Of a DNA stretch of 64,000 nt, positions 7,022 to 64,000 are shown piece after piece. Source of the stretch: an uncultured Rikenellaceae bacterium (lineage in GTDB: Bacteria > Bacteroidota > Bacteroidia > Bacteroidales > VadinHA17); NCBI GenBank assembly GCA_964577305.1, contig CAZNYS010000011.1, positions 1,507 to 65,506 on the forward strand, written 5' to 3'. A model generated the notes under the pieces. That model was not told where the DNA came from. It did no database searches and was given only the letters and a program-made list of their open reading frames with translations. The position numbers and the translations under genes were made by a program. Every line of letters starts with the position of its first letter. Within the stretch, counting starts at the first letter, position 1.

Positions 7022-7566
7022 TCACTGAATTCAGGGTCAGCTTTCACTATTTTAATCAGTGCTTCTTTACATAGATATTTTTTTCGGCGAGCGTAATCTG
7101 CTGATTTATAATTCATTTCACGGGCAATATGGCTATAATCATGACCTTTGATAACCATATTAAGCACTTCCTGGCATTCCGGTTTCAGTTTCAGGAAAGA
7201 CCGCTGTACTATTTGTTCCAACGGAGTGTCAAGCAAATTCGAAGGATCAAAATCATCAACCAGTTCTTTATCCATCTCAACATTTTTCCTCTTCTTCCTG
7301 AGATGCTCGTGCCATAAATTCTTGGAAACACCAAAGACATATCCCTTAACATCGGTATTTTCTTCAAGGTTGTTAAGTTGTATCTTCTTGAAAAGTACCA
7401 TCAGGGCATCCTGGAATATATCATATGCATCATCTTCCGTACCTGTATTCTTCAGTACATATGATTTTATGGTATCGAAAAATGAGTCATAGAGGTAGTT
7501 AACTGATTTATCGTCCCCCTTTCGTATTCCCTCTATTAATTTTGTATCTGAGTGTTTATTTAACAC
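7000..7566 (-). CDS. ECF-type sigma-70 family RNA polymerase sigma factor
   Basis: 188 aa. Region 2 (DAYDIFQDALMVLFKK ... GYVFGVSKNLWHEHLRKKRK) and region 4 HTH (CQEVLNMVIKGHDYSHIAREMNYKSADYARRKKYLC). Apparent GTG start. The 3' end overlaps the CHAT gene by 22 nt. Confidence 0.8.
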   Translation of the reverse strand: MLNKHSDTKLIEGIRKGDDKSVNYLYDSFFDTIKSYVLKNTGTEDDAYDIFQDALMVLFKKIQLNNLEENTDVKGYVFGVSKNLWHEHLRKKRKNVEMDKELVDDFDPSNLLDTPLEQIVQRSFLKLKPECQEVLNMVIKGHDYSHIAREMNYKSADYARRKKYLCKEALIKIVKADPEFSDYTDFNL

Positions 7567-7703
7567 TTCATAATAGTATTTGAGGCAAATATAGTATTTC
7601 CAAATAATTAACTCAATGATTTAAGACTAATAAGCAGTTGTAACAGTATGTTTGAATAGAATCAAATAATAGATATATTTACAGACTTTAACTATTGTTC
7701 GGT

Positions 7704-9890
7704 ATGTCATTTCCTTTCGAAAGGCAAGCAGATGCTATGGATTGTGGTCCTACCTGTCTTCAGATGGTTGCCCGTTTCTATGGTAAGAAGTTCAGCCTCC
7801 CTGATTTGAGGGGCAAGAGTTATATTACCAGGGAGGGAGTTTCTTTCCTGGGTATATCCGAAGCAGCAGAATCAGTTGGATTCAGGACTATTGGTGTTCG
7901 TATACCTTTTGCCAAGCTTGCTGAAGAGACTCCATTACCCTGTATTGTGCACTGGAGGCAAAAACATTTTGTTGTAGTACATAAGATTAAGAAAGACAGC
8001 GTGCATGTTGCCGATCCTGCAAGGGGACTGGTGAAATATTCCAGGGAAGAATTTGAGAAAAACTGGGCTATGACAACGATCGATGAGGAAAAGGTGGGTC
8101 TGGTACTGATACTTCAACCCACTCCTGAATTCTATGAGCAGGAAGAGGCAAAAGAGGGGAAATCAGGATTCAGCTTTCTTCTACGTTATATTAAGATGTA
8201 CAGGAAGTATTTCTTCCAGATCTTTCTTGGATTATTCATAGGTAGTCTTATACAGCTGATCTTTCCGTTTCTGACACAGTCGGTTATCGATATCGGTATA
8301 AATACCAATGACCTTGGATTTATTTACCTTATACTTTTTGCACAACTTGCCCTGGTTTTAGGGAGAATGACCGTTGAATTTGTTCGTGGATGGCTGTTAC
8401 TGCATATCAGTACCAGGGTTAACGTGGCCATTGTTTCAGGCTTTCTTTACAAACTGATGGCTTTGCCAGTATCATATTTCGATACCAAGTTAAGTGGTGA
8501 CCTGTTACAGAGAATTGAAGATAACCAGCGGATAGAGTCATTTCTCAGTAACACCTCATTAAGTGTGCTGTTCTCGTTTGTTAACCTCCTGGTTTTCGGT
8601 ATTGTCCTGGCTATATATAATTCAACCATACTGCTTATCTTCCTTGCCGGCACTACTTTTTACATTGCCTGGGTATCCGTTTTTATGCGGTCGCGTGCTC
8701 AGCTTGATCATAAGAGGTTTAAACAGCTGTCTGACAATAATGCCAAACTGATTGATATAATCACCGGTATGCAGGAGATTAAGCTTACTCAAAGTGAAAC
8801 AAGTAAAAGATGGGATTGGGAGAATGTCCAGGCATCACTGTTCAAAACAAGAGTAAAGGCAATGAGTCTTTCACAATACCAGCTTGCAGGTGGAAGATTG
8901 ATAAATGAAGCATCCAATGTGCTTATTACTATTATCGCGGCTGCTGCAGTATTATCAGGGAGCATGACACTTGGTATGATGCTGGCCGTACAGTTTATTA
9001 TCGGCCAGTTAAATATCCCGGTGAACCAGATGGTTGTGTTTTTCAGGACAGCACAGGATGCAAGAATGAGCCTTGACAGGCTTTCTGAAATACAATCCAG
9101 TCAGCCTGAAGAGTTGGAGGATGAAATGAAAGTAAAAAACCTGCCGGCAAACAAGAATATCTATATAAATAACCTATCATTCCAGTATGAAGGGCCACGT
9201 TCACCATTTGTCCTGAAAGATATCGATATAGTAATACCTGAGAAGAAGATCACTGCCGTGGTTGGTACCAGCGGCAGCGGAAAGACAACAATGCTAAAAC
9301 TTATGCTTGGATTCTATAACCCTGTTGAAGGAGATATACTGGTTGGCGACACAAACCTCAGGAATCTCAGTCTCAAAGTATGGAGACAAAAGATAGGTGT
9401 AGTGATGCAGGACGGTTATATTTTTCCTGATACCATAGCTAATAATATTGCTCCCGGCATTGATGTAATTGACAGTGATAAATTATTAAAATCAATCTCA
9501 ATTGCTAATATGAACGATTTTGTTGATACTTTGCCATTGGGCATAAATACAAGGATAGGACATAACGGTCATGGATTGAGCCAGGGACAGAAACAACGAA
9601 TATTGATAGCCAGGGCAGTATATAAAAATCCTGATTACCTGTTTTTTGATGAGGCCACAAACTCACTTGATGCCGCCAATGAAAAGAAGATAGTTACAAA
9701 TCTTAATGAATTTTTCTCAGGCAAGACAGTGTTGATAATTGCTCACAGGCTAAGTACGGTGCGTAATTCTGATAATATTGTGGTTATCGATAAAGGCCGG
9801 ATGATAGAAAGTGGCACTCATCCTGAACTGATAAGCAGGAAAGGCATATATTACAACCTGGTACGTGACCAGTTGGAGCTTGGTAACTGA
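7704..9890 (+). CDS. C39 peptidase domain-containing ABC exporter (bacteriocin/GG-peptide processing and export type)
   Basis: C39 catalytic Cys in DAMDCGPTCLQM and His in IVHWRQKHFVVVH. Six-TM exporter core. Walker A GTSGSGKTT, signature LSQGQKQR, Walker B LFFDEATNSLD. ATG at 7704 preferred over the TTG at 7695 used by the track. Confidence 0.9.
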   Translation: MSFPFERQADAMDCGPTCLQMVARFYGKKFSLPDLRGKSYITREGVSFLGISEAAESVGFRTIGVRIPFAKLAEETPLPCIVHWRQKHFVVVHKIKKDSVHVADPARGLVKYSREEFEKNWAMTTIDEEKVGLVLILQPTPEFYEQEEAKEGKSGFSFLLRYIKMYRKYFFQIFLGLFIGSLIQLIFPFLTQSVIDIGINTNDLGFIYLILFAQLALVLGRMTVEFVRGWLLLHISTRVNVAIVSGFLYKLMALPVSYFDTKLSGDLLQRIEDNQRIESFLSNTSLSVLFSFVNLLVFGIVLAIYNSTILLIFLAGTTFYIAWVSVFMRSRAQLDHKRFKQLSDNNAKLIDIITGMQEIKLTQSETSKRWDWENVQASLFKTRVKAMSLSQYQLAGGRLINEASNVLITIIAAAAVLSGSMTLGMMLAVQFIIGQLNIPVNQMVVFFRTAQDARMSLDRLSEIQSSQPEELEDEMKVKNLPANKNIYINNLSFQYEGPRSPFVLKDIDIVIPEKKITAVVGTSGSGKTTMLKLMLGFYNPVEGDILVGDTNLRNLSLKVWRQKIGVVMQDGYIFPDTIANNIAPGIDVIDSDKLLKSISIANMNDFVDTLPLGINTRIGHNGHGLSQGQKQRILIARAVYKNPDYLFFDEATNSLDAANEKKIVTNLNEFFSGKTVLIIAHRLSTVRNSDNIVVIDKGRMIESGTHPELISRKGIYYNLVRDQLELGN

Positions 9891-9896
9891 TTAATT

Positions 9897-11210
9897 ATGA
9901 CGAAACAGTCACATGAAATAAGATATTCCCGACCCGTGGAGGATATAATGAACACCCCTCCCAGGTCTATGGTTCGATGGGGCACTGCAATAGCGACAAT
10001 AGTAATAATATTGCTTCTGTTCCTTTCCTGGATTATAAAATACCCTTATATAATAAGGGCTGAAGCCGTAATAACAACAGAAAAGCCGCCGGCAAATATA
10101 GTTGCAAGGGTATCAGGTAATATAGAACATCTCTTTGTAAGCGACGGAGAAAAGATTTCATCAGGATCAATCCTTGGAGTAATGGAAACTACCGCTACTT
10201 ACGAGAGTATACAGTGGTTGAGTTCATTGCTCGATACGGTGAAAACAGAAGACATGTCATCTGCAAATGAAAAAGTGATCCGGAAATTACCGAATAACCC
10301 TGTTCTGGGTGAGATACAGGATCAGTATTCAACCTTCAGGAAAAACTACTATGACTATATAAACCATATAGAAATTGACTATTACGGGAAAAAAATAGAG
10401 GCTGTTAATGAGGAAATAAAGAGTATCGAAGACTATATCAGGCAGCTCAAAAGCAAAGAGGCCCTGACAGCCTCTAACCTTGAGGTAGAGAAAAAGAAAT
10501 ACCTGAGAGATTCACTACTGAACGAGCAGAACATTTTACCTGATGCTGAACTGGAAAATTCAAAGCAGAAATTTTATTCCTTAAAGATCGAACTGGTTCA
10601 GGTTGTACTGGAAGCTTCATCAAGACGTATTGACCTTGCATCTAAAAAGCAGGAGTTGCAGGATTTGACTGCTGCCCGCGAAGAAGAAAGACAAAGGTAT
10701 ATTTCCGCCGTTGACGATGAGCTTATGAAACTTAAAGCAAGACTCGAATGGTGGATACAGGATTACCTGCTCGTTTCACCCATTGACGGAAATGTGACTT
10801 TTACGAGGTACTGGTCAGAAAATCAGTCTGTAAGGGAAGGAGAAACAGTAATGACGGTTGTGCCCCAGGGCGAAAGTGAAATATTTGCCCGTATTATGAT
10901 CCCGATGGCAGGCTCCGGGACAGTGAAAGAAGGGCAGAATGTTAACATACAGCTGGAAGGATATCCTTACCTTGAATATGGAATGGTTCAGGGTATAATA
11001 GAATCACGTTCACTGGTCCCACAAGAAGATCTATATGTCCTCGATGTTAGTTTACCCGACGGCTTATCAACATTTTATGGAAAGCAACTCGATTTCAGCC
11101 AGAATATGTCAGGAAGGGCTGAAATTATAACCGAGGATATGAGGTTGATCGAGAGACTGATATATCCTTTTAAATACCTTGTCGAAAAGAACAGGAGAGC
11201 GGGCAATTAA
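9897..11210 (+). CDS. HlyD-family membrane fusion / secretion adaptor protein
   Basis: Single N-terminal TM (WGTAIATIVIILLLFLSWII), a long coiled-coil middle and a beta-rich C-terminus. It starts 6 nt after the ABC exporter gene. Confidence 0.8.
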   Translation: MTKQSHEIRYSRPVEDIMNTPPRSMVRWGTAIATIVIILLLFLSWIIKYPYIIRAEAVITTEKPPANIVARVSGNIEHLFVSDGEKISSGSILGVMETTATYESIQWLSSLLDTVKTEDMSSANEKVIRKLPNNPVLGEIQDQYSTFRKNYYDYINHIEIDYYGKKIEAVNEEIKSIEDYIRQLKSKEALTASNLEVEKKKYLRDSLLNEQNILPDAELENSKQKFYSLKIELVQVVLEASSRRIDLASKKQELQDLTAAREEERQRYISAVDDELMKLKARLEWWIQDYLLVSPIDGNVTFTRYWSENQSVREGETVMTVVPQGESEIFARIMIPMAGSGTVKEGQNVNIQLEGYPYLEYGMVQGIIESRSLVPQEDLYVLDVSLPDGLSTFYGKQLDFSQNMSGRAEIITEDMRLIERLIYPFKYLVEKNRRAGN

Positions 11211-11432
11211 TAATCAGTCGGCATTTTAATACAAAAAATTTAGATTTTTAGCATTCTGTCATCTTCGGCAATAGATATGACCAGTGTTTAAGTTGTTGTG
11301 TAACAGTGATAAAATATAAAAACTCTTATTCTTTGAGTTTTTCTAAATAATTCGATATTTTCGTAACCTTGATTGGTCTCAGATTTAAGTAATTAATAAA
11401 TCTGCAAATGTGCTCAAATAAAAGGATTAGTT

Positions 11433-13529
11433 ATGACTGTTATAAATCCGGATGATTCTGTTCGTGATGAACAATTCGATGCAGAAAATGAATCTGCCGA
11501 AACTAATAGTGAAACCAACAAAGCTGAAACAAAAGCTGAATCAAAAGAAGAAGGATCTACCACCAATGGTGAGGATTTGAAATCCGAACCTGATAAAGAG
11601 GCTTCCGTCTCCGCCATGGCTGCGGAGGATAAGAAGGTTAAGGGAAAAGAAGAAGAATCTACTAATGGTGAAGATTCAAAATCCGAACCTGATAAAAAGC
11701 AAAAAGCTGAGGAGAAAGAGGAGGCTAAGGCAGATGACATTTCAGAGGATAGTGAAGATTCGTCAGGAAAGGGAACTGAGGAAGAACCTGACGAATTGCC
11801 GGAGGTTGACTATACGGGGAGATCTAAGGTTGAGCTCACGGAAACTCTTGAATTACTTATTGAAAACAGGCCGCTGAATGAGATAGTCGATGATGTTGAC
11901 AAGATAAAAACCATATTCTATAAAAAGCATAAGGCAGAACTCGATAAAAAGAAGAAAAAATTCCTGGAAGAAGGAGGGAGAATTGAAGATTATCAGCCTG
12001 CCGATGATCCGTTGGAGCTTAAAATAAAAAACCTTCTTGCCCGCTTCAGGGGTAAGAAAACTGAATACAACAAACAGCTCGAAGTTGAGAAACAGGAAAA
12101 CCTCAGGAAAAAGTATGATATAATTGATAAGATAAAAGACCTGGTTAACAGGGAAGAATCAATTAATAAAACATTCCAGGAATTCAGGGATTTGCAGGCC
12201 CAGTGGCACTCAACAGGCATAGTGCCTCAGTCTTCGCTCAGGAACCTTTGGGAAACCTATAACCTGAATGTTGAAATTTTCTATGATTATATTAAGATTA
12301 ACAAGGAACTGAGGGACCTGGACTTAAAAAAGAACCTGGAAAGCAAAATTAAGCTGTGCGAAAAAACGGAAGAACTTTTATTGGACCCCAATGCTGTGAA
12401 TGCTTTCAGAGCTCTTCAGGAATACCACCAGCAATGGAGAGAAATAGGGCCGGTTCCAAGAGAGTCAAGGACAGAATTGTGGGATAGATTCAAGGCTGCT
12501 ACTTCAAATATAAATAAGAGACATCACGAATATTTTGAAAAGCAGAAGGACGAACAAAAAAAGAATTTGGAAGCCAAAACGGCATTATGCGAAAAAGTAG
12601 AGGAAATAAATAATCTTAAATTAAAAACCTTCAAAGATTGGGAAAGTAAAGCCAAAGAGGTAATTGAAATACAAAAAGTTTGGCGTACTATAGGCTTTGC
12701 TCCCAAAAGACATAATAACAGCATTTACCAGAGATTCAGAGAAGGCTGTGATGCTTTCTTCCAGGCAAAAAGAGAATTCTATGCCGAAAACAGAGAACAG
12801 CAGTTGGCTAACCTTCAGAAAAAAACTGAATTATGCATGCAGGCAGAAACATGGAAGGACAGCACTGAATGGAAAGAAGCAACTGATGCCCTGATAAACT
12901 TGCAGAAAGAATGGAAGGAGATAGGTACTGTTCCCAGAAAACACTCGGATAAAATATGGCGACGATTTAGAAAAGCCTGTGATCGCTTTTTTGAAAGAAA
13001 ATCAGAACATTTTACTGAACTGGACAGCTCCTTTGAAGATAATCTTAAAGAAAAAGAAAAGCTTATAGACGAACTTGAAAATTTCGATCCGGGGGACGAT
13101 ATTAATGAGGCTTTTGAAAAACTTAAGGAGATTCAAAGAAAATGGACTGAAGTAGGTTTTGTACCATATAAAGATAAGGATAAAATAGGAAACCGGTACA
13201 GGAATGCCCTGAATGAACAATTCGACAGGCTGAAAATAGATGAGGACGAGAAAGCTATTCTTAAATTTCAGACAAAGCTGGAGAATATCAAGGAAACGCC
13301 AAAAGCAACAAGAAAACTAAGGGGAGAGAGAGAAAAATTCATAAACAGGATTAAACAACTTGAGAATGACATTGTTGTGTGGGAAAATAATATTGGCTTC
13401 TTTTCAAAATCAAGCAATGCAGAGTCGATGATCCAGGAAGTGCAGTCAAAAATTGACAACGCGAAGAAAACAATAGAAGTGCTTGAAGAAAAAATAAAGC
13501 TGATTGACCAGTCGGGAATTGATAATTAA
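11433..13529 (+). CDS. DUF349 repeat protein with an acidic low-complexity N-terminus
   Basis: Multiple DUF349-type repeats of about 75 aa (W..IG.VP......LW.RF......F..). The N-terminal 120 aa are E/K/D/S-rich. Confidence 0.7.
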   Translation: MTVINPDDSVRDEQFDAENESAETNSETNKAETKAESKEEGSTTNGEDLKSEPDKEASVSAMAAEDKKVKGKEEESTNGEDSKSEPDKKQKAEEKEEAKADDISEDSEDSSGKGTEEEPDELPEVDYTGRSKVELTETLELLIENRPLNEIVDDVDKIKTIFYKKHKAELDKKKKKFLEEGGRIEDYQPADDPLELKIKNLLARFRGKKTEYNKQLEVEKQENLRKKYDIIDKIKDLVNREESINKTFQEFRDLQAQWHSTGIVPQSSLRNLWETYNLNVEIFYDYIKINKELRDLDLKKNLESKIKLCEKTEELLLDPNAVNAFRALQEYHQQWREIGPVPRESRTELWDRFKAATSNINKRHHEYFEKQKDEQKKNLEAKTALCEKVEEINNLKLKTFKDWESKAKEVIEIQKVWRTIGFAPKRHNNSIYQRFREGCDAFFQAKREFYAENREQQLANLQKKTELCMQAETWKDSTEWKEATDALINLQKEWKEIGTVPRKHSDKIWRRFRKACDRFFERKSEHFTELDSSFEDNLKEKEKLIDELENFDPGDDINEAFEKLKEIQRKWTEVGFVPYKDKDKIGNRYRNALNEQFDRLKIDEDEKAILKFQTKLENIKETPKATRKLRGEREKFINRIKQLENDIVVWENNIGFFSKSSNAESMIQEVQSKIDNAKKTIEVLEEKIKLIDQSGIDN

Positions 13530-51781: not shown

Positions 51782-53404
51782 ATGGGACTTTCAGGAAATA
51801 TTGTAATTAAGTCTATTATACTTGCATTTGCTTTAACTCTCTTATCATGCAGCAAATCTGAAGATAAACCGAACATCGTTCTTATTATGGCCGATGATAT
51901 GGGTTTCTCTGATATAGGATGTTATGGTGGAGAGATAGAAACACCTAATCTTGACCGGCTGGCATCAGAGGGTATACGTTTTATACAATTTTATAATAAT
52001 GCAAGATGCTGCCCTACCAGGGCAGCCCTGTTGACCGGCCTTTATCCACATCAAGCAGGTCTTGGCCATATGGTTGATGGAGTGGTACGGGATGGTGGTT
52101 ATTATGGTGAAATAAACAGGAATTGTGTTACAATAGCTGAAGTATTGGGCTCTTCGGGTTACTCAACATATATGTCGGGTAAATGGCATGTTTCACGCTC
52201 CGTGCGACCTGAGGATAAGCGTAACTGGCCTCTGCAGAGAGGATTTGATGACTTTTTCGGCACAATTACAGGTGCTGGCAGTTTTTATGACCCGGCAACT
52301 CTAACTCATATGAATGAACCAATAGAAGCAAACTCTGGTTTTTATTATACAGATGCTATATCTGATACAGCCTGTGCATTTATTGAATCGCACTGTCGTA
52401 AAAGAAAAGAAATACCATTTTTCCTGTATGTTGCCTATACCGCCCCTCACTGGCCGCTTCATGCTCCTGATGAAGTTATACAAAAATACCAGAAACTATA
52501 TGAGCAGGGCTGGGATTTACTCAGGCAGAAAAGGTTTGACAGACTTAAAGAACTGGGCATTATGGGCTATGACCTGGTCTTATCTGACAGGGATAGCAGG
52601 GTGCCCGAATGGAAGTCGGTTGAGGAAAAAGAATGGCAGGCCAGGAGAATGGCAACCTATGCTGCCCAGGTTGATATTATGGACCAGGGTATCGGACGAA
52701 TAGTGCAAACACTCCGTGAAGAAAAGCAACTGGATAACACGCTAATACTTTTCCTCTCTGATAATGGAGGATGTGCAGAAGGATGGAATTCCGAAACGGA
52801 GTGGGTGAGAAGATACGCACCGGAATTTAATTTTGATGGCGTCGAACTTCAATTTGGCAATAATCCTTCAATAATCCCCGGGCCCGACAGTACTTACGCA
52901 AGTTACGAGACCGAATGGTCCAACCTGAGCAATACACCATTCAGGTGGTATAAACACTATGGCCATGAAGGAGGTGTGGCTTCACCTTTTATCATGCACT
53001 GGCCAAATAGCCTGGATGATAAAAATAGCCTGAGAAACCAGGTAACTGGAATTATAGATATAATGGCAACCATAGTGGATGTAACAGGAGCTGAATATCC
53101 TGAATTGTACAATGGCAATGCAATAATACCAATGGAGGGCCTGAGCCTTATTGATGCAGCAATAAATAATTCCCCTCTGGACAGGGATGCATATTATTTC
53201 GAGCATGAGTGGAACAGGTACATAAGGAAAGGAAAATGGAAACTGGTGGCTTTATGGAATGGCGACTGGGAATTATACGATATGGAGAAAGACAGAACCG
53301 AGTTGAATGATCTTTCGGATGAATATCCGCAACTGGTGGAGGAACTTAGAGATGAATGGGAAAGATGGGCATGGCGAACCGGTGTTCTGCCAAATGACAG
53401 ATAA
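51782..53404 (+). CDS. Arylsulfatase-family (formylglycine-dependent) sulfatase lipoprotein
   Basis: Lipobox TLLSC. MADDMGFSD metal site. CxPxR motif in RCCPTRAALLTG. Confidence 0.9.
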   Translation: MGLSGNIVIKSIILAFALTLLSCSKSEDKPNIVLIMADDMGFSDIGCYGGEIETPNLDRLASEGIRFIQFYNNARCCPTRAALLTGLYPHQAGLGHMVDGVVRDGGYYGEINRNCVTIAEVLGSSGYSTYMSGKWHVSRSVRPEDKRNWPLQRGFDDFFGTITGAGSFYDPATLTHMNEPIEANSGFYYTDAISDTACAFIESHCRKRKEIPFFLYVAYTAPHWPLHAPDEVIQKYQKLYEQGWDLLRQKRFDRLKELGIMGYDLVLSDRDSRVPEWKSVEEKEWQARRMATYAAQVDIMDQGIGRIVQTLREEKQLDNTLILFLSDNGGCAEGWNSETEWVRRYAPEFNFDGVELQFGNNPSIIPGPDSTYASYETEWSNLSNTPFRWYKHYGHEGGVASPFIMHWPNSLDDKNSLRNQVTGIIDIMATIVDVTGAEYPELYNGNAIIPMEGLSLIDAAINNSPLDRDAYYFEHEWNRYIRKGKWKLVALWNGDWELYDMEKDRTELNDLSDEYPQLVEELRDEWERWAWRTGVLPNDR

Positions 53405-53430
53405 CTGTAGCTTATTAAAAACAAAATAAC

Positions 53431-55788
53431 ATGAAAAAACTGATTTTCTTAATTCTTGGAGCTTTATACATTGCTTCATGCGGTAGCGATGAAAACCAGC
53501 CCCTGACAGGATCACAATGGGGTGAACTGAGGAACGGATCAGCCGAAGATGTAGTATCTTCCGAGGTATTATTCTGGACCCCTGAAAGCCGAAGGGGAGG
53601 AGCAGTGCTTTTCTATGATTTTGATGCCAGAGAAGGAAATAAGAGCCTTACAATATACAGCGACAATCCTTCATATGGCAGGTGGTTCAACAAGGTTAAC
53701 CTGAAACCCTGGTCAAAATACAGGTTTACCGGGTGGGTAAAAACCGATAATCTTGTCCCAGGCGGAAAAAAGGGGGCAGGTATAAGGATAGATGGTATGC
53801 CTGTGGAAACAACAGGCTTTAACGGAACAAATGACTGGACGCAGGTGGAATATGTATTTGAAACAGGTGATAACGATGCGGCAATTGTATCCTGCGTTTT
53901 CGGCCTTGACGGAAGGGCAACAGGAAGAGCATGGTTTGATGATATGAAGTTTGAACTGATATCTGAAGAAAAATTAACTACTTCAATTTCCATTAACATT
54001 GAGGATACCGGGGCACCAATCTCAAAATATATATATGGTCAGTTTATCGAACACCTGGGCCGCTGCATATACGGGGGTATCTGGGCGGAGATGATCAATG
54101 ACAGGAAGTTCTACTATCAACCGGGTACTGAAGAATCAACATGGAGAATCCATGGGAACCGTGAACTTCTTAAAACAGATAATATAAATTCTTATGTTGG
54201 TGAAATTACACCAGTTCTCAGTATCATGCCGGATGATGATGTATCGCTTGTTCAGAGTGAACTGGGACTGAAAGAGGGAATGGGATATACCGGCAGGATA
54301 GTGTTGAAAGCTGACAGTGGTATTGAGAAAGTGACCGTTAACCTGTCCTCGGGAGATTATGTAGAGTCAGTTACAATAGATTCTTTAGAATCCGGTTATA
54401 AAGATTATCCTCTAAATTTTACATCGGATGTGTTTACTCATAATGCATCAATAGAAATTAGTGCTGAAGGAACGGGGAATCTGTATACAGGCACCATCAG
54501 TCTTATGCCAGCTGACAATATTGATGGTTTCAGGAAAGATGTTATAGCGCTTTTAAAAGAGCTTAACTCACCTGTTTACAGGTGGCCGGGAGGTAATTTT
54601 GTAAGCGGCTACGACTGGAATGATGGTATAGGACCACGTGACAAAAGGCCGCCCCGCAAAAACCCGGCATGGACAGGTGTTGAGCATAATGATGTCGGAA
54701 TGCATGAATTCATACAGTTCTGCCGCCTTCTCGGCACAGAACCTTATATAGCCGTGAATGCAGGACTTGGTAATGTGGAACAGGCCCGCCAGCAGGTTGA
54801 ATATTGCAATGGTGATCAAAGTACACCTATGGGCAGGCTGAGGGCTGAAAACGGTGATCCTGAACCATGGAAGGTTAAATGGTGGTCAATAGGTAATGAG
54901 ATGTATGGCAGCTGGCAGCTGGGACATATGTCAACCGAGGCATTTGTTGATAAGCATAATGGTTTTGCGAAAGCAATGAGATCGGTCGATCCTGACATTG
55001 AACTAGTGGCAGTGGGTGAAGTAGGAGAATGGGATGAAATGATCCTTGCCAACTGTGCAGATAATATGGACCTGATAAGTGAACATTTTTACCGCCAGGA
55101 CTGGCATGGTGGCGGATTAATGACACATGCACTTCAAATACCCAGGGCAATAAAAGGTAAAGCCGATGCCCACCGAAGGTACAGGGAAGAAATACCGGGA
55201 CTGGCTGATAAAGATATCAGGATATGCCTTGATGAGTATAATTACTGGTATGGTCCACATATTTATGGTGAACTGGGAACAAGATATTTTATGAGAGATG
55301 CACTGGGAATTGCAGCAGGTATGAACGAATTTTACCGGCAATCGGATATTATTTATATGGCCAATTATGCACAGACCGTTAATGTTATAGGATGTATAAA
55401 AACAAATACCACACATTCAGTAATGGCCTCAACAGGACAGGTGCTTAAGCTTTATCGTGCCAGGTACGGGACTATTCCTTTAAAGGTGGATGGTGAAGCT
55501 CGACCTCTTGATATTGCTGCCGCTCTCAATGATTCATCTGATACCCTGGTGATTTCAGCAGTAAATCCTACATGGAAAAAGGTGGTTATGAATTTTGATA
55601 TTGAAAATGCTGATATAGGTTATGTAGCTGAACACTGGTCGATTACAGCTCCTGATGATATGGCATATAACGAACCGGGCAAACCTGAAAAAGTGGTAAT
55701 TAACGGACCTGTGAGATTATCCGGTATAAAAACCATGGAAATAGATCCCGTGAGTATCAATATTTTCAGAATCCCGCTCAACAAGTAA
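53431..55788 (+). CDS. GH51 alpha-L-arabinofuranosidase with an N-terminal CBM4/9-like module
   Basis: Lipobox YIASC. GH51 motifs YRWPGGNFVSGYDW and WWSIGNEMYG (acid/base Glu). An N-terminal beta-sandwich of about 170 aa ends in RAWFDDMKFE. Confidence 0.8.
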   Translation: MKKLIFLILGALYIASCGSDENQPLTGSQWGELRNGSAEDVVSSEVLFWTPESRRGGAVLFYDFDAREGNKSLTIYSDNPSYGRWFNKVNLKPWSKYRFTGWVKTDNLVPGGKKGAGIRIDGMPVETTGFNGTNDWTQVEYVFETGDNDAAIVSCVFGLDGRATGRAWFDDMKFELISEEKLTTSISINIEDTGAPISKYIYGQFIEHLGRCIYGGIWAEMINDRKFYYQPGTEESTWRIHGNRELLKTDNINSYVGEITPVLSIMPDDDVSLVQSELGLKEGMGYTGRIVLKADSGIEKVTVNLSSGDYVESVTIDSLESGYKDYPLNFTSDVFTHNASIEISAEGTGNLYTGTISLMPADNIDGFRKDVIALLKELNSPVYRWPGGNFVSGYDWNDGIGPRDKRPPRKNPAWTGVEHNDVGMHEFIQFCRLLGTEPYIAVNAGLGNVEQARQQVEYCNGDQSTPMGRLRAENGDPEPWKVKWWSIGNEMYGSWQLGHMSTEAFVDKHNGFAKAMRSVDPDIELVAVGEVGEWDEMILANCADNMDLISEHFYRQDWHGGGLMTHALQIPRAIKGKADAHRRYREEIPGLADKDIRICLDEYNYWYGPHIYGELGTRYFMRDALGIAAGMNEFYRQSDIIYMANYAQTVNVIGCIKTNTTHSVMASTGQVLKLYRARYGTIPLKVDGEARPLDIAAALNDSSDTLVISAVNPTWKKVVMNFDIENADIGYVAEHWSITAPDDMAYNEPGKPEKVVINGPVRLSGIKTMEIDPVSINIFRIPLNK

Positions 55789-55797
55789 ATAATAGTC

Positions 55798-57249
55798 ATG
55801 AAGAAATACGGATTATTTCTTATGGCAGTTATATTATCCATGCTGTCATGCCAGGAGAAAAAAAGACAGCCTGACGTGCTTTTTATTGCCATTGATGATA
55901 TGAATGACTGGATTACCCCGCTGGGAGGCAGGGATGATATGCATACACCCAATCTTGATGCACTGGCTGCCAGGGGGATGATCTTTGAGAATGCACATTG
56001 TACGGCTCCTGCCTGCTGCCCTTCGCGCACAAGTGTGATGACAGGTGTTCGACCCAGTACATCAGGTGTATATGCAAACACTCAACTATGGAGAAAATCA
56101 CCGGTACTGGGCAAGGCCTTAACCATTCCTGAATTTTTCAGGAAACAGGGATATATAGTAAAAGGAGGTGGAAAAATATTCCATGCACTGTCGTGGATCC
56201 AGACAGCATACGGTATCGACCAGAATGATTCAACAATATGGGATGAATACTTTCCTTCCAAATCAAGGTCACTACCACCTTCAATATGGCCTGAGTCATA
56301 TGAAATTAATGATGTTGGGACAGTAACGTGGGATAATATTGCAGGGGCAGGTACAGAAAACAGGCCACCATATTACTTTGACTGGGGGCCCCTGGGTAAA
56401 GAAGAGAATATGGCTGATTATAAAGTTGTAGAATGGGCAGTTTCTGAACTGCAGAAAAAACATGATAAACCACTATTTCTTGCTGTTGGTATTTTCAGAC
56501 CTCATATACCATGGTTTGTACCCCGGGAGTACTTTGATATGTACCCGGTAGATGAAAGGGAATTGCCTAAAATACTTGAGAATGACCTTGATGATGTATC
56601 ATCTGCATCATACCCCTGGCTGAGAAGGCAGTGGCAGAAGTGGATACTTGAGAATGACCAGTGGAAATCTGCCGTTCAGGCTTACGAAGCCTGCATTTCA
56701 TTCTCTGATGCCATGCTTGGTAAACTTATCAGGGGACTTGATGAAAGCGGCAGAGCTGATAATACAATTATTGTACTTTGGTCAGACCATGGTATGCATA
56801 TAGGGGAGAAAGAGCAATGGGAGAAATTTACCCTTTGGGAAGAATCAACAAGAGTACCCTTGATATTTATTGCTCCCGGAATAACAGCACCAGGCTCCCG
56901 CACAGCTGAAGCCGTCAGCTTGCTTGATGTATACCCTACACTTGTAAGCCTGGCAGGAGGGGAGCAATTTGAACAACTTGAGGGAACCGACCTGGTGCCA
57001 CAACTCAGAGATCCCGGAGCCCAGAGAGATGAACCGGCAATAACAACTTACCATAAGGATAATCATTCAGTGAGGACGGAAAGATGGAGATATATCCGCT
57101 ATTATAATGGTGATGAAGAATTATATGATCATAAGAATGACCCTGATGAATTTCATAATATTGCCGATTCCGCCGAACTGAGACCATTAATAGAAGAACT
57201 GTCTAAATGGTTGCCCGAAATCAATGCAGAGGAATTTAGGAATAACTGA
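55798..57249 (+). CDS. Formylglycine-dependent sulfatase lipoprotein (iduronate-2-sulfatase-like)
   Basis: Lipobox MLSC. IAIDDMNDW metal site. CxPxR motif in PACCPSRTSVMTG. Confidence 0.9.
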   Translation: MKKYGLFLMAVILSMLSCQEKKRQPDVLFIAIDDMNDWITPLGGRDDMHTPNLDALAARGMIFENAHCTAPACCPSRTSVMTGVRPSTSGVYANTQLWRKSPVLGKALTIPEFFRKQGYIVKGGGKIFHALSWIQTAYGIDQNDSTIWDEYFPSKSRSLPPSIWPESYEINDVGTVTWDNIAGAGTENRPPYYFDWGPLGKEENMADYKVVEWAVSELQKKHDKPLFLAVGIFRPHIPWFVPREYFDMYPVDERELPKILENDLDDVSSASYPWLRRQWQKWILENDQWKSAVQAYEACISFSDAMLGKLIRGLDESGRADNTIIVLWSDHGMHIGEKEQWEKFTLWEESTRVPLIFIAPGITAPGSRTAEAVSLLDVYPTLVSLAGGEQFEQLEGTDLVPQLRDPGAQRDEPAITTYHKDNHSVRTERWRYIRYYNGDEELYDHKNDPDEFHNIADSAELRPLIEELSKWLPEINAEEFRNN

Positions 57250-60477: not shown

Positions 60478-62142
60478 ATGGTAATATCAGACCGAATACC
60501 GATTACTGTAGGTGTTATAGGTCATCTTGATGTTATAACAACAGACGAACACAGGGTACAAATAGAAAAATTGTTCAGCGATCTGGCTGCAAAGTATCCC
60601 AATACACCTGTTCACCTTTTTTCCTCAATTGCAGAAGGTGCCGACAGGTTCGTTGCTGAAATCTTCTTAAATATGAAATGGGAAAATGAAGAATACCATG
60701 ATAGGTTCGAACTGATTGTCCCTTTGCCTTTTGATCCTGAAGAATACAAGGCAGACTTTGATGATTTTTCTGATAAAGAATTTGATGCCCTGCTTAAACA
60801 GGCAAAAAGAAGTTTTATCGTTGGCTATGATGGTAAAGAGATTGACAGGCCCCGTCAGTATTTAAAAACCGGCAAACTGGTAGCAGACAGTTCTATGATT
60901 CTGATTGCCCTGTGGGATGGAAAGGTGGGAAAGAAAGGAGGAACGGCTGATATAGTAAAACACAAAATAACGGGGGACGATGATACAGTTGCTGAAAGCA
61001 CATTTGAATATGATGGTACTGTCTTTATTTTACCCAGTCAAAGGGAACAGTCTCCAGATAATATTTCAAAAAAATATAAAAACATCGAATCTCTGTCCCT
61101 GGATCTTGTTCTAAAAGATGTTACACTGAGAGAGGCCCTTGAAAAAATTGAAGAGATAAACAGGGATTCAGTTCATATTGGTCAGGCCGACCTTGAAAAA
61201 TCACAACCATATTTGTTTAATAAGCCTGAGAAACTGAATATTCCTCAGAGGTCATTGATGGTATGGTATTCACTTCTTGATCAGTTATCACTGAAATGCA
61301 GGAAGAAAGATCTGATGGCTACTGCCTTGCTTTTTGTTTTAGGATTGTTCTTTATCCTGGGACTGGAAATATATTCAAATATATGGGTTAACAGACTTGT
61401 ACTGGCAGTTACTATGTCTCTTCTTGTTCTTGCGACCGCAGTATTGATTTATTCGAGGATAAAAAAAGATCATGCTAAATATTTATACAACAGGACCCTG
61501 GCAGAAGCTTTAAGAATCCAGTTTTACTGGAACTTTGCAGGGTTGCAGGAAAATGTCTCTGATTATATCCTGAGAATACACCGCAAGGAATTCACCTGGG
61601 TAAAACACATTCTTTCTGCTCTTTATGGACTAACATATAACACTAGATCCATAAATCCTGAAACAATAGAGGACCTTACAGATAACTGGATTAAAGACCA
61701 GGCCTCTTTTTTCAATTCTTCAATAATTAAGATGAACGAACGAATAACCCGTTATCACAGGGTATCCAATGTGGCATTTGTTATGGCATTTATTCTTTTT
61801 GTTTCAATATTCTTTCTGGGTACTTTCTATGCATCAAATGATTTTCTGCTTAACATATTACTGGTTATAGCTCCAATATTACTGGGGATCTTTGCTTTAA
61901 TCAGGACATATATTAATATGAAGGGATATGAGCAGTTAGTGAATCAGTATGAGCTGATGCAGGTTATTTATAAAAGAGCTGAAGCTAAGATTGCCGAGCT
62001 GCATCAAACACCTCTAAAATCAGGGGAGAGGGATTCGTATTTCAGGGAACTGTTTTTTGTTATCGGGAAAGAAGCACTTATCGAGAACGGTATCTGGTAC
62101 CTGATATTTAAAGAGAAAGAGCCGGAGCTTGAAGTTGGATGA
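60478..62142 (+). CDS. SLOG-like (LOG/DprA-type Rossmannoid) N-terminal domain fused to two 2TM SLATT/DUF4231-like membrane modules
   Basis: N-terminus ITVGVIGHLDV ... SSIAEGADRFVAEIFL ... LIALWDGKVGKKGGTADIVKH. Two hydrophobic hairpins follow: ALLFVLGLFFILGLEIY/LVLAVTMSLLVLATAVLIY and VAFVMAFILFVSIFFLGTFY/LLVIAPILLGIFALI. Each is preceded by an amphipathic helix. Confidence 0.55.
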   Translation: MVISDRIPITVGVIGHLDVITTDEHRVQIEKLFSDLAAKYPNTPVHLFSSIAEGADRFVAEIFLNMKWENEEYHDRFELIVPLPFDPEEYKADFDDFSDKEFDALLKQAKRSFIVGYDGKEIDRPRQYLKTGKLVADSSMILIALWDGKVGKKGGTADIVKHKITGDDDTVAESTFEYDGTVFILPSQREQSPDNISKKYKNIESLSLDLVLKDVTLREALEKIEEINRDSVHIGQADLEKSQPYLFNKPEKLNIPQRSLMVWYSLLDQLSLKCRKKDLMATALLFVLGLFFILGLEIYSNIWVNRLVLAVTMSLLVLATAVLIYSRIKKDHAKYLYNRTLAEALRIQFYWNFAGLQENVSDYILRIHRKEFTWVKHILSALYGLTYNTRSINPETIEDLTDNWIKDQASFFNSSIIKMNERITRYHRVSNVAFVMAFILFVSIFFLGTFYASNDFLLNILLVIAPILLGIFALIRTYINMKGYEQLVNQYELMQVIYKRAEAKIAELHQTPLKSGERDSYFRELFFVIGKEALIENGIWYLIFKEKEPELEVG

Positions 62143-62223
62143 CTTCAGTAACAGAAAGACCTGCGATAATGATTTTATCCAGGTTATATTTTTTTCGTAA
62201 CTTTATTTAAATGAATTGTTGAT

Positions 62224-64000
62224 ATGGCAAGTATAATTGAAGGATACGAATACGATATCTTTATCAGCTACAGGCAAAAGGACAACAAATACGATGGGTG
62301 GGTCACCGAGTTTGTCAATAATCTCCAGCGGGAACTGGATGCTACCTTTAAGGAAGATGTGTCGATATATTTCGATGAAAACCCACACGATGGATTGCTT
62401 GAGATTCATAATGTCGACAAAAGTCTTGAAACAAAACTCAAATCTGTGGTATTTATACCAATTATCTCCCAGACATACTGTGATCCGAAAAGCTTTGCAT
62501 GGCATAATGAATTTGTTGCATTCAACAAAATGGCAGGTGAAGATCAGTTTGGCAGGGATATTAAGCTGCCAGATGGCAATGTCTGCAGCAGGATTATACC
62601 TGTGAAAATTCATGATCTTGATCCGACCGACACTGAACTGGTTGAAAATGAGCTTGGCTGCAGGCTCCGTTCAATAGACTTCATTTTTTCGAGTGCCGGG
62701 GTGAACAGACCTTTAACACCTCACGATAATCCGGACAAGAATCTCAACAAGACTTATTACCGAGACCAGATCAATAAAGTGGCGAACGCTGTTAAGGAGA
62801 TCATTTACGGACTTCATCCTGATAAGAAAAAAAGGATCACAAAAACATACCAAACCAGGACTCAGGCAGGATACATTGATGAACCTGCTAAAATAATGGA
62901 TGGAAGAGATGCAAGACCAAAATGGTTGACCGGTAAGATAATTGCTCCCGTAGCCATAGGGATACTGGCAATACTTGCAATAATATATGTAATACCCAAA
63001 TTGTCGCAGAAAGCCGAAAAGCAAATATTACCTGACATATCAATAAGAAAAGCGGTTGCTGTAATGCCCGTTTCCAATTTTACAGGCGACCCTGAGATGG
63101 GCTGGATCGCTGATATGATCCAGAGTGATCTGACCGGCCAGCTTCAGGGTATCAGTAACCTGGTCGTAAGGCCAAAACAAACAACATTGCAGTTCAGGAA
63201 CAGTCAGGAACCGGTACAGGATATCGCCAGGAAACTGAGTGTAAATAACCTTATAGAAACTTCTATAAAGGGAACCGAGGATAAGCTTCAGGTGGAAATA
63301 ACGGTTCTTGAAGCATTCCCGGAAGAAAAATACCTGTATCGTTCTTCATTCACCCACAGTTTTTCTGAACTGGCAAATATATACAGTGATATGGTCAACC
63401 GGATACTCAAGGAAATGGAGGTTAAACCAACAGAAGATGAAGAGGCAACAATATCAGCAAGAACCGTTAACCCTGAAGTACGAAAAGCCTGTGCGCGGGG
63501 ATCATATTATATGAGTCAGCTTACCCAGGAGGGGTTTGAAAAAGGGGTGGAGTATTATGAAGAGGCTATAGCTATTGATCCTGCTGATCCTGAACCATAT
63601 ATAGGACTGGCACTGGGTTATGGAAGTGCCGGCCATGGTGCCGGTATTGCATCCCTTAATATGGCTAAAGCCTATGCCCTTAAAGCCATAGAACTCGATC
63701 CTGAGGAACTGCATCCCAATCTTGCCGATGCCCACGTAGTACTGGCTGAAACATATCTTTACCATGATTATGATTTTGTGAAAGCCGAACACCACCTGAA
63801 ACGAGCCATCGACCTTAATCCAAACAGCGCACCAGCCCATTATACATATGGATGGTATATTGCCCTGACCGACCAGGTGGATGAAGCCGCAGATGAGATG
63901 AGGATAGCCATGCAGATAAATCCCCTTGCTCCCATATGCCCGGGATACCTTGGCTGGATGTTTCAGTGGTTCGGCCGTTATGAGGAAGCAATAAGCTATG
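62224..64000 (+). CDS. TIR domain - TM - TolB_N-like - TPR protein (3' partial; not in the ORF track because no stop codon lies in the window)
   Basis: Manual translation from the ATG at 62224 (in-frame TGA at 62212) stays open for 592 codons to nt 64000. TIR start YDIFISYRQKDN and W..E motif FAWHNEF. TM segment IIAPVAIGILAILAIIYVI. Then VAVMPVSNFTGDPEMGWIADMIQSDL and TPRs (YYEEAIAIDPADPEPYIGLALGY...). Confidence 0.8.
   Translation, partial: MASIIEGYEYDIFISYRQKDNKYDGWVTEFVNNLQRELDATFKEDVSIYFDENPHDGLLEIHNVDKSLETKLKSVVFIPIISQTYCDPKSFAWHNEFVAFNKMAGEDQFGRDIKLPDGNVCSRIIPVKIHDLDPTDTELVENELGCRLRSIDFIFSSAGVNRPLTPHDNPDKNLNKTYYRDQINKVANAVKEIIYGLHPDKKKRITKTYQTRTQAGYIDEPAKIMDGRDARPKWLTGKIIAPVAIGILAILAIIYVIPKLSQKAEKQILPDISIRKAVAVMPVSNFTGDPEMGWIADMIQSDLTGQLQGISNLVVRPKQTTLQFRNSQEPVQDIARKLSVNNLIETSIKGTEDKLQVEITVLEAFPEEKYLYRSSFTHSFSELANIYSDMVNRILKEMEVKPTEDEEATISARTVNPEVRKACARGSYYMSQLTQEGFEKGVEYYEEAIAIDPADPEPYIGLALGYGSAGHGAGIASLNMAKAYALKAIELDPEELHPNLADAHVVLAETYLYHDYDFVKAEHHLKRAIDLNPNSAPAHYTYGWYIALTDQVDEAADEMRIAMQINPLAPICPGYLGWMFQWFGRYEEAISY

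Follow-up and report, generated by a model that had tools for sequence, protein, structure and literature searches.

A membrane-anchored receptor with a divergent TIR-like domain encoded beside a SLOG-SLATT protein in an uncultured Rikenellaceae bacterium

Introduction

The stretch of DNA analysed here (the window) comprises 64,000 nucleotides (nt) of contig CAZNYS010000011.1, positions 1,507 to 65,506 of the forward strand, from assembly GCA_964577305.1 of an uncultured Rikenellaceae bacterium. It ends within an open reading frame (ORF) that starts at position 62224, a short distance downstream of a gene for a protein with a predicted SLOG domain and transmembrane (TM) hairpins. From the sequence this ORF had been read as a TIR domain joined by one TM helix to a periplasmic TPR sensor, and the two genes as a pair resembling the Thoeris systems (the original prediction). 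The question raised by the locus is whether the two products work together, one sending a nucleotide signal that the other receives, or whether two independent genes happen to be neighbours. The ORF is a genuine gene for a receptor-type membrane protein. Its linkage to the SLOG-SLATT gene is strong when counted from SLOG-SLATT and weak when counted from the receptor family, and either gene can occur without the other.

To our knowledge, all characterised bacterial TIR signalling, namely that of the Thoeris types, depends on soluble TIR proteins answering events inside the infected cell. The SLOG and SLATT domains were reportedly defined by Burroughs et al. in 2015 in Nucleic Acids Research. 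Effectors of types I and III Thoeris include the SIR2-SLOG protein ThsA, the ligand being 3' cyclic ADP-ribose (3'cADPR). The use of SLOG effectors by types I and III has been documented together with type VII Thoeris, in which the TIR protein ThsB is combined with a SLATT effector, ThsH, and the signal is canonical cADPR (bioRxiv 10.64898/2025.12.03.692087). SLOG domains of the YpsA clade have been associated with the sensing of cADPR (PMC9503650), and SLATT is predicted to be a permeability effector regulated by ADP-ribose derivatives (PMC9503650; PMC6459960).

Results

Receptor gene and protein architecture

Translation of the plus strand from an ATG at 62224 gives a stop-free frame of 592 codons that reaches the window end at 64000. 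Both the open frame and the motifs on which the original prediction relied were reproduced, YDIFISYRQKD occupying residues 10-20 and SQTYCDPKSFAWHNEF residues 82-97. The mechanical ORF lister leaves out any ORF cut by the window end, and this plausibly explains why the gene track overlooked the present one. Four contigs of public assemblies matched the upstream protein, and one of them, L001, a metagenome contig from JGI, matches window positions 62100-64000 with 100% identity; on this contig the receptor gene is completed to 735 amino acids (aa). Since the N-terminal 407 aa of the receptor have 3,239 matching proteins at E≤1e-5, the ORF is a conserved real gene and not a chance ORF, and it has the architecture claimed for it:

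62224..64000, plus strand: receptor gene, first 592 of 735 codons (TIR-like domain, TM helix, α/β module and TPRs)
62245..62823, plus strand: cytoplasmic divergent TIR-like domain, residues ~8-200 (predicted fold, sub-threshold TIR_2 match and invariant columns)
62929..62997, plus strand: single TM helix, residues ~236-258 (Kyte-Doolittle peak of 2.94 over residues 233-264)
63037..63438, plus strand: extracytoplasmic α/β module, residues ~272-405 (conserved motif KSIAVLPF.N)
63496..64000, plus strand: TPR array, continuing past the window to residue 735 (Pfam matches above cut-off)

The single TM helix that had been proposed was borne out by hydropathy, and the TPR repeats that follow it were confirmed by TPR_17, TPR_1, TPR_2, TPR_11 and TPR_19, which all exceed the Pfam cut-off over residues ~438-570 and are the only Pfam families found. 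The segment between them, described earlier as a TolB_N-like module, is taken as an α/β module and has a conserved motif, but the TolB_N label could not be confirmed. No Pfam family matched the segment (residues ~272-405), its profile gave insignificant matches to FlgO (E 0.9) and LpoB (E 1.1), and the label goes back solely to the name 'TolB-like protein' that some sources give to receptor homologs. NCBIfam models for HilA/EilA and CadC matched weakly over the extracytoplasmic region. The receptor is a single-pass, N-in membrane protein with the TIR-like domain inside and the α/β module and TPR sensor outside.

At loci L048 (8001-10596) and L064 (8001-10165), both on contigs of long-read metagenome-assembled genomes (MAGs), the receptor gene is fragmented along with several neighbours. 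Because the adjoining unrelated genes are fragmented too, assembly indels are likelier than pseudogenes.

Identity of the TIR-like domain

The N-terminal domain appears to be a divergent TIR-like domain, as judged by its predicted fold. An AlphaFold2 (AF2) model built from 27 sequences (predicted local distance difference test, pLDDT, 77.7; predicted template-modelling score, pTM, 0.80) has the order βA-αA-βB-αB-βC-αC-βD-αD-βE-αE followed by a C-terminal extension. In a Foldseek search of this model against the PDB, the TIR domains of SARM1, Roq1, TLR5, MyD88, RPS4 and TLR10 were found at ranks 1, 2, 3, 5, 9 and 12, respectively, with probabilities of 0.98-1.0; the matches were modest, with E values of 1e-3 to 1e-2 and template-modelling scores (TM-scores) of 0.45-0.60 on the target.

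The TIR domain of the original prediction was thus upheld by fold prediction but not by a sequence match above the Pfam cut-off. Pfam TIR_2 (PF13676) gave 15-15.7 bits on the window domain (E 0.02-0.04), the cut-off being 28. It was nevertheless the only recurrent Pfam family, matching 11 of 12 members below threshold with a best E of 0.0026. Among 120 homologs, none has a TIR family in its precomputed Pfam list. The ThsB model of PADLOC matched the isolated domain weakly (E 0.0039). Profile searches against PDB sequences gave nothing significant with the N-terminal domain alone (L6 TIR, E 1.6), and with the full-length receptor alignment they returned TPR proteins only and were silent on the N-terminal domain.

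The columns invariant in the domain alignment are Y10, D11, S15, R17, S90, W93 and E96. In NADase TIR domains the catalytic glutamate sits early in helix αC, after strand βC. E96, invariant in 27 of 27 sequences, lies early in a predicted helix (residues 92-106, αC) after a strand (residues 76-81, βC), and the spacing S90-x5-E96 is the same as S69-x5-E75 in a canonical TIR_2 protein found in this analysis. When the family profile was compared by hhalign with a single canonical TIR and with a profile of 17 canonical TIR_2 sequences, only strand βA was aligned confidently, its F-I-S-Y motif being matched to canonical TIR_2; alignments forced by a low mact or in global mode could not be relied upon. 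By its place in the model, E96 may plausibly correspond to the catalytic glutamate of NADase TIRs.

Upstream SLOG-SLATT protein

The gene that precedes the receptor gene had been labelled SLOG-2TM. It encodes a protein with the following parts:

60478..62142, plus strand: upstream gene, 554 aa, SLOG (YpsA-like) and two SLATT-like hairpins of two TM helices each (ORF, AF2, Foldseek and NCBIfam)
60478..61047, plus strand: SLOG domain, residues ~1-190 (β/α structure, YpsA fold match and invariant columns)
61303..61464, plus strand: first TM hairpin, residues ~276-329 (hydropathy over residues 276-305 and 301-329; weak SLATT_3 match over 264-346)
61756..61923, plus strand: second TM hairpin, residues ~427-482 (hydropathy over residues 427-455 and 450-482; SLATT_1 match over 418-495)

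The AF2 model (pLDDT 79, pTM 0.79) begins with an α/β domain whose top Foldseek match was Bacillus subtilis YpsA (2nx2; E 1.4e-4, probability 1.00, 186 columns, TM-score 0.63 on the target). Ranks 2-12 include TRPM8, TRPM4, TRPM5 and TRPM2, and SeThsA (7uxt) was matched with a probability of 0.80. The invariant motifs of the domain are G12/G15/H16, S49-S50-x-A-E-G-A-D56 and G154-G155-T-A157, the glycine-rich ones being of the type typical of nucleotide-binding SLOG domains. No SLOG family of Pfam matched the window protein, even at E≤10. One of the 294 homologs detected (~553 aa), P0236, which is 62% identical, carries a precomputed Pfam assignment to YpsA (PF06908).

Both hairpins sit within long helices, as indicated by AF2 and hydropathy, and fall where SLATT_3 and SLATT_1 match weakly; all of these matches remained below threshold (NCBIfam SLATT_1, 20.3 bits, E 4e-4, cut-off 41; NCBIfam SLATT_3, 11.4 bits, E 0.23, cut-off 45; Pfam SLATT_3, E 0.25). 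A PADLOC model for SLATT associated with reverse transcriptase matched the region of the second hairpin (E 0.002), and PADLOC gave no ThsA match and nothing for the SLOG part. A search of PDB sequences with the SLOG-SLATT profile found nothing. The earlier label therefore holds for the two hairpins and, through predicted structure though not through a Pfam match, for the SLOG fold. From the YpsA fold match and the two hairpins with weak SLATT matches, the protein is described as SLOG plus two SLATT-like modules.

Linkage of the two genes

The junction between the genes is short:

62143..62223, plus strand: intergenic spacer, 81 nt (sequence)

The SLOG-SLATT gene, with its stop at 62142, lies on the same strand as the receptor gene and ends 81 nt before the receptor ATG at 62224, as had been stated. 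No terminator-like hairpin was found in the spacer, and a sigma-70 promoter scan of the junction, with a model unsuited to Bacteroidota promoters, gave shuffle-level scores only. The SLOG-SLATT/TIR junction measures 24-127 nt in 31 other loci.

Linkage from the SLOG-SLATT side was assessed around SLOG-SLATT homologs in 79 metagenome loci. Of the 35 loci with a co-oriented gene at position +1, 26 have a TIR-TM gene there, compared with 21 TIR-TM genes among the 364 genes at every other position taken together; this corresponds to an odds ratio of 47 and a Fisher p of ~1e-20 for loci that are phylogenetically related. A TIR-TM gene lies within three genes in 35 of the 58 SLOG-SLATT loci that have at least three other genes. 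The adjacency recurs in at least three unrelated genomic contexts and extends to distant receptor paralogs of 34-39% identity (L112, L113, L136 and L153).

Proteins of other TIR lineages occupy the same place. At L084, L085 and L088 the +1 gene belongs to a different, canonical TIR_2-TM lineage (Pfam E 1e-20 to 1e-24; L085:4544-7126, L084:5883-7877 and L088:7489-7758), and the adjoining SLOG-SLATT is 73-81% identical to that of the window. The full protein of L085 has the order TIR_2, TM, PEGA, FGE-sulfatase and α/β-hydrolase. A third TIR_2-TM lineage is found at L154, in convergent orientation, beside a SLOG-SLATT that is only 38% identical to that of the window.

The view from the receptor side is based on 78 GTDB loci with 91 full-length family genes, or 93 with the inclusion of two fragmented copies. 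The gene directly upstream is SLOG-SLATT in five of the 78 loci (L005, L015, L022, L048 and L064), corresponding to three of the 91 full-length receptor genes and to 5/93 (~5%) with the fragmented copies. All receptors paired in this way belong to the orthologous group of the window (≥50% identity), where the receptor gene is frequently, though not in every case, preceded by SLOG-SLATT, and none of the 63 paralogs below 50% is paired. In the synteny of the Rikenellaceae type (LigT, DUF4294, TIR receptor, DUF3267), SLOG-SLATT is present at L022, L048 and L064.

The SLOG-TIR pairing that had been proposed is hence non-random when counted from SLOG-SLATT (26/35) and rare when counted from the receptor (3/91). 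The receptor family is widespread and for the most part stands alone, an outcome that the original prediction had named as speaking against it and that applies in part, yet the adjacency does recur in other genomes. The original interpretation is thus partly supported.

Size, spread and sensors of the receptor family

The 200-residue domain is carried at E≤1e-3 by 1,116 representatives of clusters formed at 50% identity and at E≤1e-30 by 513, so that the family comprises at least 1,116 such clusters. Among the matches listed, the domain almost always occupies residues 1-197, in proteins whose length is mostly 650-1,000 aa, and is 63-80% identical to that of the window. The cytoplasmic domain is far better conserved than the remaining part of the receptor. 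The sensors vary; most are TPR arrays, and PD40 β-propellers and a combination of PEGA, FGE-sulfatase and α/β-hydrolase (L084) also occur. In the latter case (L084:3-2648) a TIR-like domain of the family type is joined to the PEGA, FGE-sulfatase-like and α/β-hydrolase sensor set.

At least 443 stretches of GTDB species genomes encode relatives of the receptor. The 78 loci that were kept derive nearly all from MAGs of Bacteroidota (Bacteroidales, Rikenellaceae, Cytophagales, Cyclobacteriaceae and Chryseolinea), and one derives from a MAG labelled Candidatus Dojkabacteria. In 26 of the 78, more than one receptor copy is present. Arrays at L029, L035, L040 and L053 hold as many as 4-5 paralogs in tandem over 12-18 kb, and further arrays lie at L031, L047 and L058. 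Single MAGs may also have several separate receptor loci, for example CAWBNA01 with L034, L035, L055 and L056. In another ortholog subgroup (L007, L011, L023 and L074; ~7088-12100), an AIM24-family gene precedes the receptor gene, and the receptor stop overlaps the start of a gene for a 638-aa class-V aminotransferase by 4 bp, which suggests a different operon partner.

In public databases the homologs are named 'TolB-like', 'TPR protein', 'adenylate cyclase' or 'serine/threonine-protein kinase', and never TIR. A full-text literature search of limited reach returned no description of such a receptor family. The family is a large one of Bacteroidota in which one TIR-like output domain is combined with many different sensors. 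Paralog expansion, varied sensors and a conserved domain together give the profile of a receptor family and not that of a single-copy defence gene.

Genomic surroundings

The neighbours of the pair in the window are genes for phosphoadenosine phosphosulfate (PAPS) reductase, DUF2061, NhaA, sulfatases and an arabinofuranosidase, with no defence island. Other receptor contexts are equally housekeeping in character (LigT, DUF4294 and DUF3267). Two sulfatase genes around a gene for a GH-type α-L-arabinofuranosidase-like protein (window positions 51782-57249) have the look of a polysaccharide-utilisation locus, and such surroundings fit an origin of the window in Bacteroidota.

The original prediction had proposed a screen with DefenseFinder or PADLOC. 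PADLOC was run and gave nothing significant; with the whole receptor protein there was no match at E≤0.01. The component types do match those of Thoeris, but the defence context was not borne out. A BrxP match of PADLOC to the PAPS reductase gene was rejected as a match to a shared domain, the gene encoding an ordinary PAPS_reduct protein beside DUF2061 and NhaA. Scans for both families detected no relatives among the viral contigs of IMG/VR. A role of the pair in phage defence is not shown by its neighbours, PADLOC or IMG/VR.

The proposal that the receptor gene is cut off by the window was correct, whereas the further components that it allowed for past 64000 were not recognised among the genes that follow. 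Downstream of the receptor gene in L001 are a 63-aa ORF, a gene for a 280-aa protein of the metallo-β-lactamase (MBL) fold and, on the opposite strand, a 138-aa ORF. The 63-aa ORF (MGKAIVKLNIATYAGEEYVV..., L001:7328-7519), just past the window end, begins 3 bp after the receptor stop, matches no Pfam family and is 81-94% identical in seven other loci, two of which have no receptor gene. The MBL protein has an N-terminus resembling a signal peptide, as in a secreted protein; its precomputed Pfam assignment is 'Anti-Pycsar_Apyc1', and only generic Lactamase_B families were obtained in our own Pfam scan. Both genes were considered as extra components and rejected, being conserved at L091 and L105, which lack the TIR gene. 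As the downstream genes are present with or without the TIR gene, they do not look like further parts of a system.

Several other genes accompany members of the two families elsewhere. A protein with RyR and PP2C/SpoIIE phosphatase domains is encoded beside SLOG-SLATT or a TIR receptor at L115, L129, L131, L134, L135, L136 and L145. At L131 a co-directional run consists of the RyR-PP2C gene, a TIR receptor gene 4 bp later, a Metallophos gene and SLOG-SLATT. In 19 loci within L114-L139 (e.g. L118:4932-5939), a gene for a calcineurin-like metallophosphoesterase with a hydrophobic N-terminus lies ~45 bp upstream of SLOG-SLATT; members of this subclade have a convergent DUF4956 gene and an unannotated gene for a 358-aa protein downstream of SLOG-SLATT.

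Discussion

Proposed function and alternatives

The reading favoured here, which we regard as evenly poised between right and wrong, is that the receptor-type TIR-like protein makes an NAD-derived signal that is read by a SLOG-gated SLATT pore, in an outside-in form of Thoeris-like logic. It builds on the gene and domain order, the predicted TIR-like and SLOG folds, the topology given by hydropathy and the position-specific linkage computed here. An envelope cue would bring receptor molecules together, upon which the TIR-like domains would assemble and convert NAD+ into a signal derived from ADP-ribose. The SLOG domain would bind this signal, and the hairpins of signal-bound SLOG-SLATT would gate or assemble, thereby changing the permeability of the membrane. 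The outcome may be abortive phage defence, or else an envelope-stress or signalling response.

A number of observations weigh against such a partnership. The gaps of 24-127 nt between the two genes could hold separate promoters, and since the loci on the SLOG-SLATT side are related to each other, the p value given for the enrichment overstates their independence. Most receptors lack a neighbouring SLOG-SLATT gene (88 of the 91 full-length genes, with 0/63 of the paralogs paired). SLOG-SLATT is absent from the same syntenic site, with the receptor kept, in at least seven MAGs (L006, L016, L018, L019, L020, L024 and L026). Conversely, L091 (6001-9627) and L105 (4305-8211) share the order of the window, NhaA, DUF2061, PAPS reductase, SLOG-SLATT, the 63-aa ORF (orf63), MBL and the 138-aa ORF (orf138), and keep SLOG-SLATT with the TIR-receptor gene cleanly missing before orf63. 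The TIR assignment itself falls under every curated sequence threshold (Pfam TIR_2 and PADLOC), and flavodoxin-like folds are interleaved among the TIR matches of Foldseek and score nearly as well. As hhalign was confident over βA only, the identity of E96 with the catalytic glutamate is not established. The oligomerisation, the NAD+ chemistry, the ligand binding and the gating are inferred.

The same proteins can be read in three other ways. If the receptor stands alone, its TIR-like domain would be an NAD+-consuming effector like SARM1, or a homotypic adaptor, and SLOG-SLATT would be an independent neighbour. This would agree with the ~95% of the family that have no SLOG-SLATT neighbour, with tandem arrays of up to 4-5 paralogs that have no effector gene nearby and with sites of shared synteny at which one gene or the other is missing; moreover, known TIRs deplete NAD+ without a partner (bioRxiv 10.64898/2025.12.03.692087). 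We nevertheless hold it to be unlikely, given an enrichment that is strongly specific to position and orientation and the presence beside SLOG-SLATT of three TIR lineages, all membrane-anchored, one of them next to a SLOG-SLATT of merely 38% identity. SLOG and SLATT are, in addition, established readers or effectors of TIR products. Less probable still is a phage-defence operon of the classical Thoeris type, acting by abortive infection, in which the periplasmic sensor detects an attack on the envelope. Housekeeping neighbours (NhaA, DUF2061, PAPS reductase, LigT, DUF4294 and DUF3267), the lack of significant PADLOC matches, the absence of both families from IMG/VR contigs and the many TIR-family paralogs per genome with receptor-type sensors, unlike ThsB, all argue against this explanation. 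In its favour, the component types match those of Thoeris types I, III and VII, and the presence/absence polymorphism of both genes at fixed sites, the sole hint of defence, resembles the turnover of defence genes.

The remaining alternative concerns the domain and not the pair. Were the N-terminal domain of some other flavodoxin-like or nucleoside-processing fold and its chemistry different, the likeness to Thoeris would be superficial. The sub-threshold status of all sequence matches to TIR models would then be expected, as would Foldseek E values of only ~1e-3 with TM-scores of 0.4-0.6, the presence of flavodoxin-like proteins, DNPH1 and a nucleoside deoxyribosyltransferase-like protein among the Foldseek matches, and a length exceeding that of a canonical TIR by ~60 residues. 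This is judged very improbable, because TIR domains are the top and the most frequent high-probability Foldseek matches, TIR_2 is the sole Pfam family matched by 11 of 12 members, the F-I-S-Y motif of strand βA aligns with canonical TIR_2, and canonical TIR_2-TM proteins take the same genomic position.

The proposed sender-receiver partnership can also be set in a wider frame, which is offered tentatively. The receptors may form a 'Toll-like' family of transmembrane proteins of Bacteroidota, in which an extracytoplasmic sensor of TPR, PD40 or FGE-sulfatase type drives a near-invariant TIR-like enzyme producing an NAD-derived messenger for general outside-in signalling beyond phage defence; SLOG-SLATT would then be one ligand-gated membrane output, corresponding in bacteria to ADPR-gated TRPM2 and common to many paralogous sensors of a cell. 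This wider reading is held to be less likely than not.

If the partnership is real, a TIR-type enzyme would be placed at the inner end of a periplasm-facing receptor, and signalling by NAD-derived nucleotides could be driven from outside the cytoplasm. The SLOG-SLATT partner, facultative yet position-specific, would make a testable sender-receiver pair with it. Since the TIR-like domain is missed by public annotation, surveys that start from Pfam TIR matches would overlook the family.

Comparison with known systems

The nearest known arrangement is type VII Thoeris, which is similar in that a TIR-type gene adjoins a gene for a membrane protein with two-helix hairpins of the SLATT type and, as predicted here, in that a nucleotide made by the TIR domain would open or assemble the membrane effector. 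However, ThsB of type VII is soluble, whereas the TIR-like domain of the window forms the cytoplasmic part of a receptor that crosses the membrane once and has its TPR sensor in the periplasm, and the effector has an added N-terminal SLOG domain of the YpsA type and two SLATT modules. The present pair differs from Thoeris further in its facultative linkage, the expansion of paralogs and a setting without a defence island, and it is known from sequences alone. With types I and III Thoeris it shares a SLOG domain as the presumed receptor of the TIR product, SeThsA being among the fold matches; here, however, the output would be SLATT hairpins and not SIR2, and the SLOG domain is nearest to YpsA, not to ThsA.

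The TRPM channels consist of an N-terminal SLOG-like MHR1/2 domain and a membrane channel, and TRPM2 is gated by ADP-ribose (ADPR). As in SLOG-SLATT, a SLOG-fold domain is fused to a membrane permeation module. A TRPM channel is a tetramer with six TM helices per subunit, whereas SLOG-SLATT has two SLATT hairpins of two TM helices each, and the alignments with TRPM proteins have a high root-mean-square deviation, so that the resemblance is an analogy of domain logic and gives no evidence of orthology. In this sense SLOG-SLATT would be a bacterial parallel to the ADPR-gated TRPM channels, and the receptor parallels the sensor-TM-TIR plan of Toll-like receptors.

Like the Toll-like receptors, the receptor combines an external sensor of solenoid-forming repeats with a single TM helix and an internal TIR-type domain. 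The sensor of the former is built of leucine-rich repeats, whereas the protein described here has a TPR sensor and the reversed polarity of a type II protein with an N-terminal TIR-like domain; there is no evidence of common descent for the whole architecture. The TIR domains of animal Toll-like receptors are adaptors and not enzymes.

The extracytoplasmic module may be one shared with receptors of the COG5616 type, to judge by the names of homologs and the weak HilA/EilA and CadC matches. We take the combination of TM helix, TolB_N-like segment and TPRs to be a general signalling sensor. In the COG5616-type receptors the output is a Ser/Thr kinase, an adenylate cyclase or a DNA-binding domain of the CadC/HilA type, whereas here it is a TIR-like domain. 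New relative to Thoeris would be a membrane-anchored, receptor-type TIR protein with an extracytoplasmic sensor and, as its candidate partner, a SLOG-(SLATT)2 fusion.

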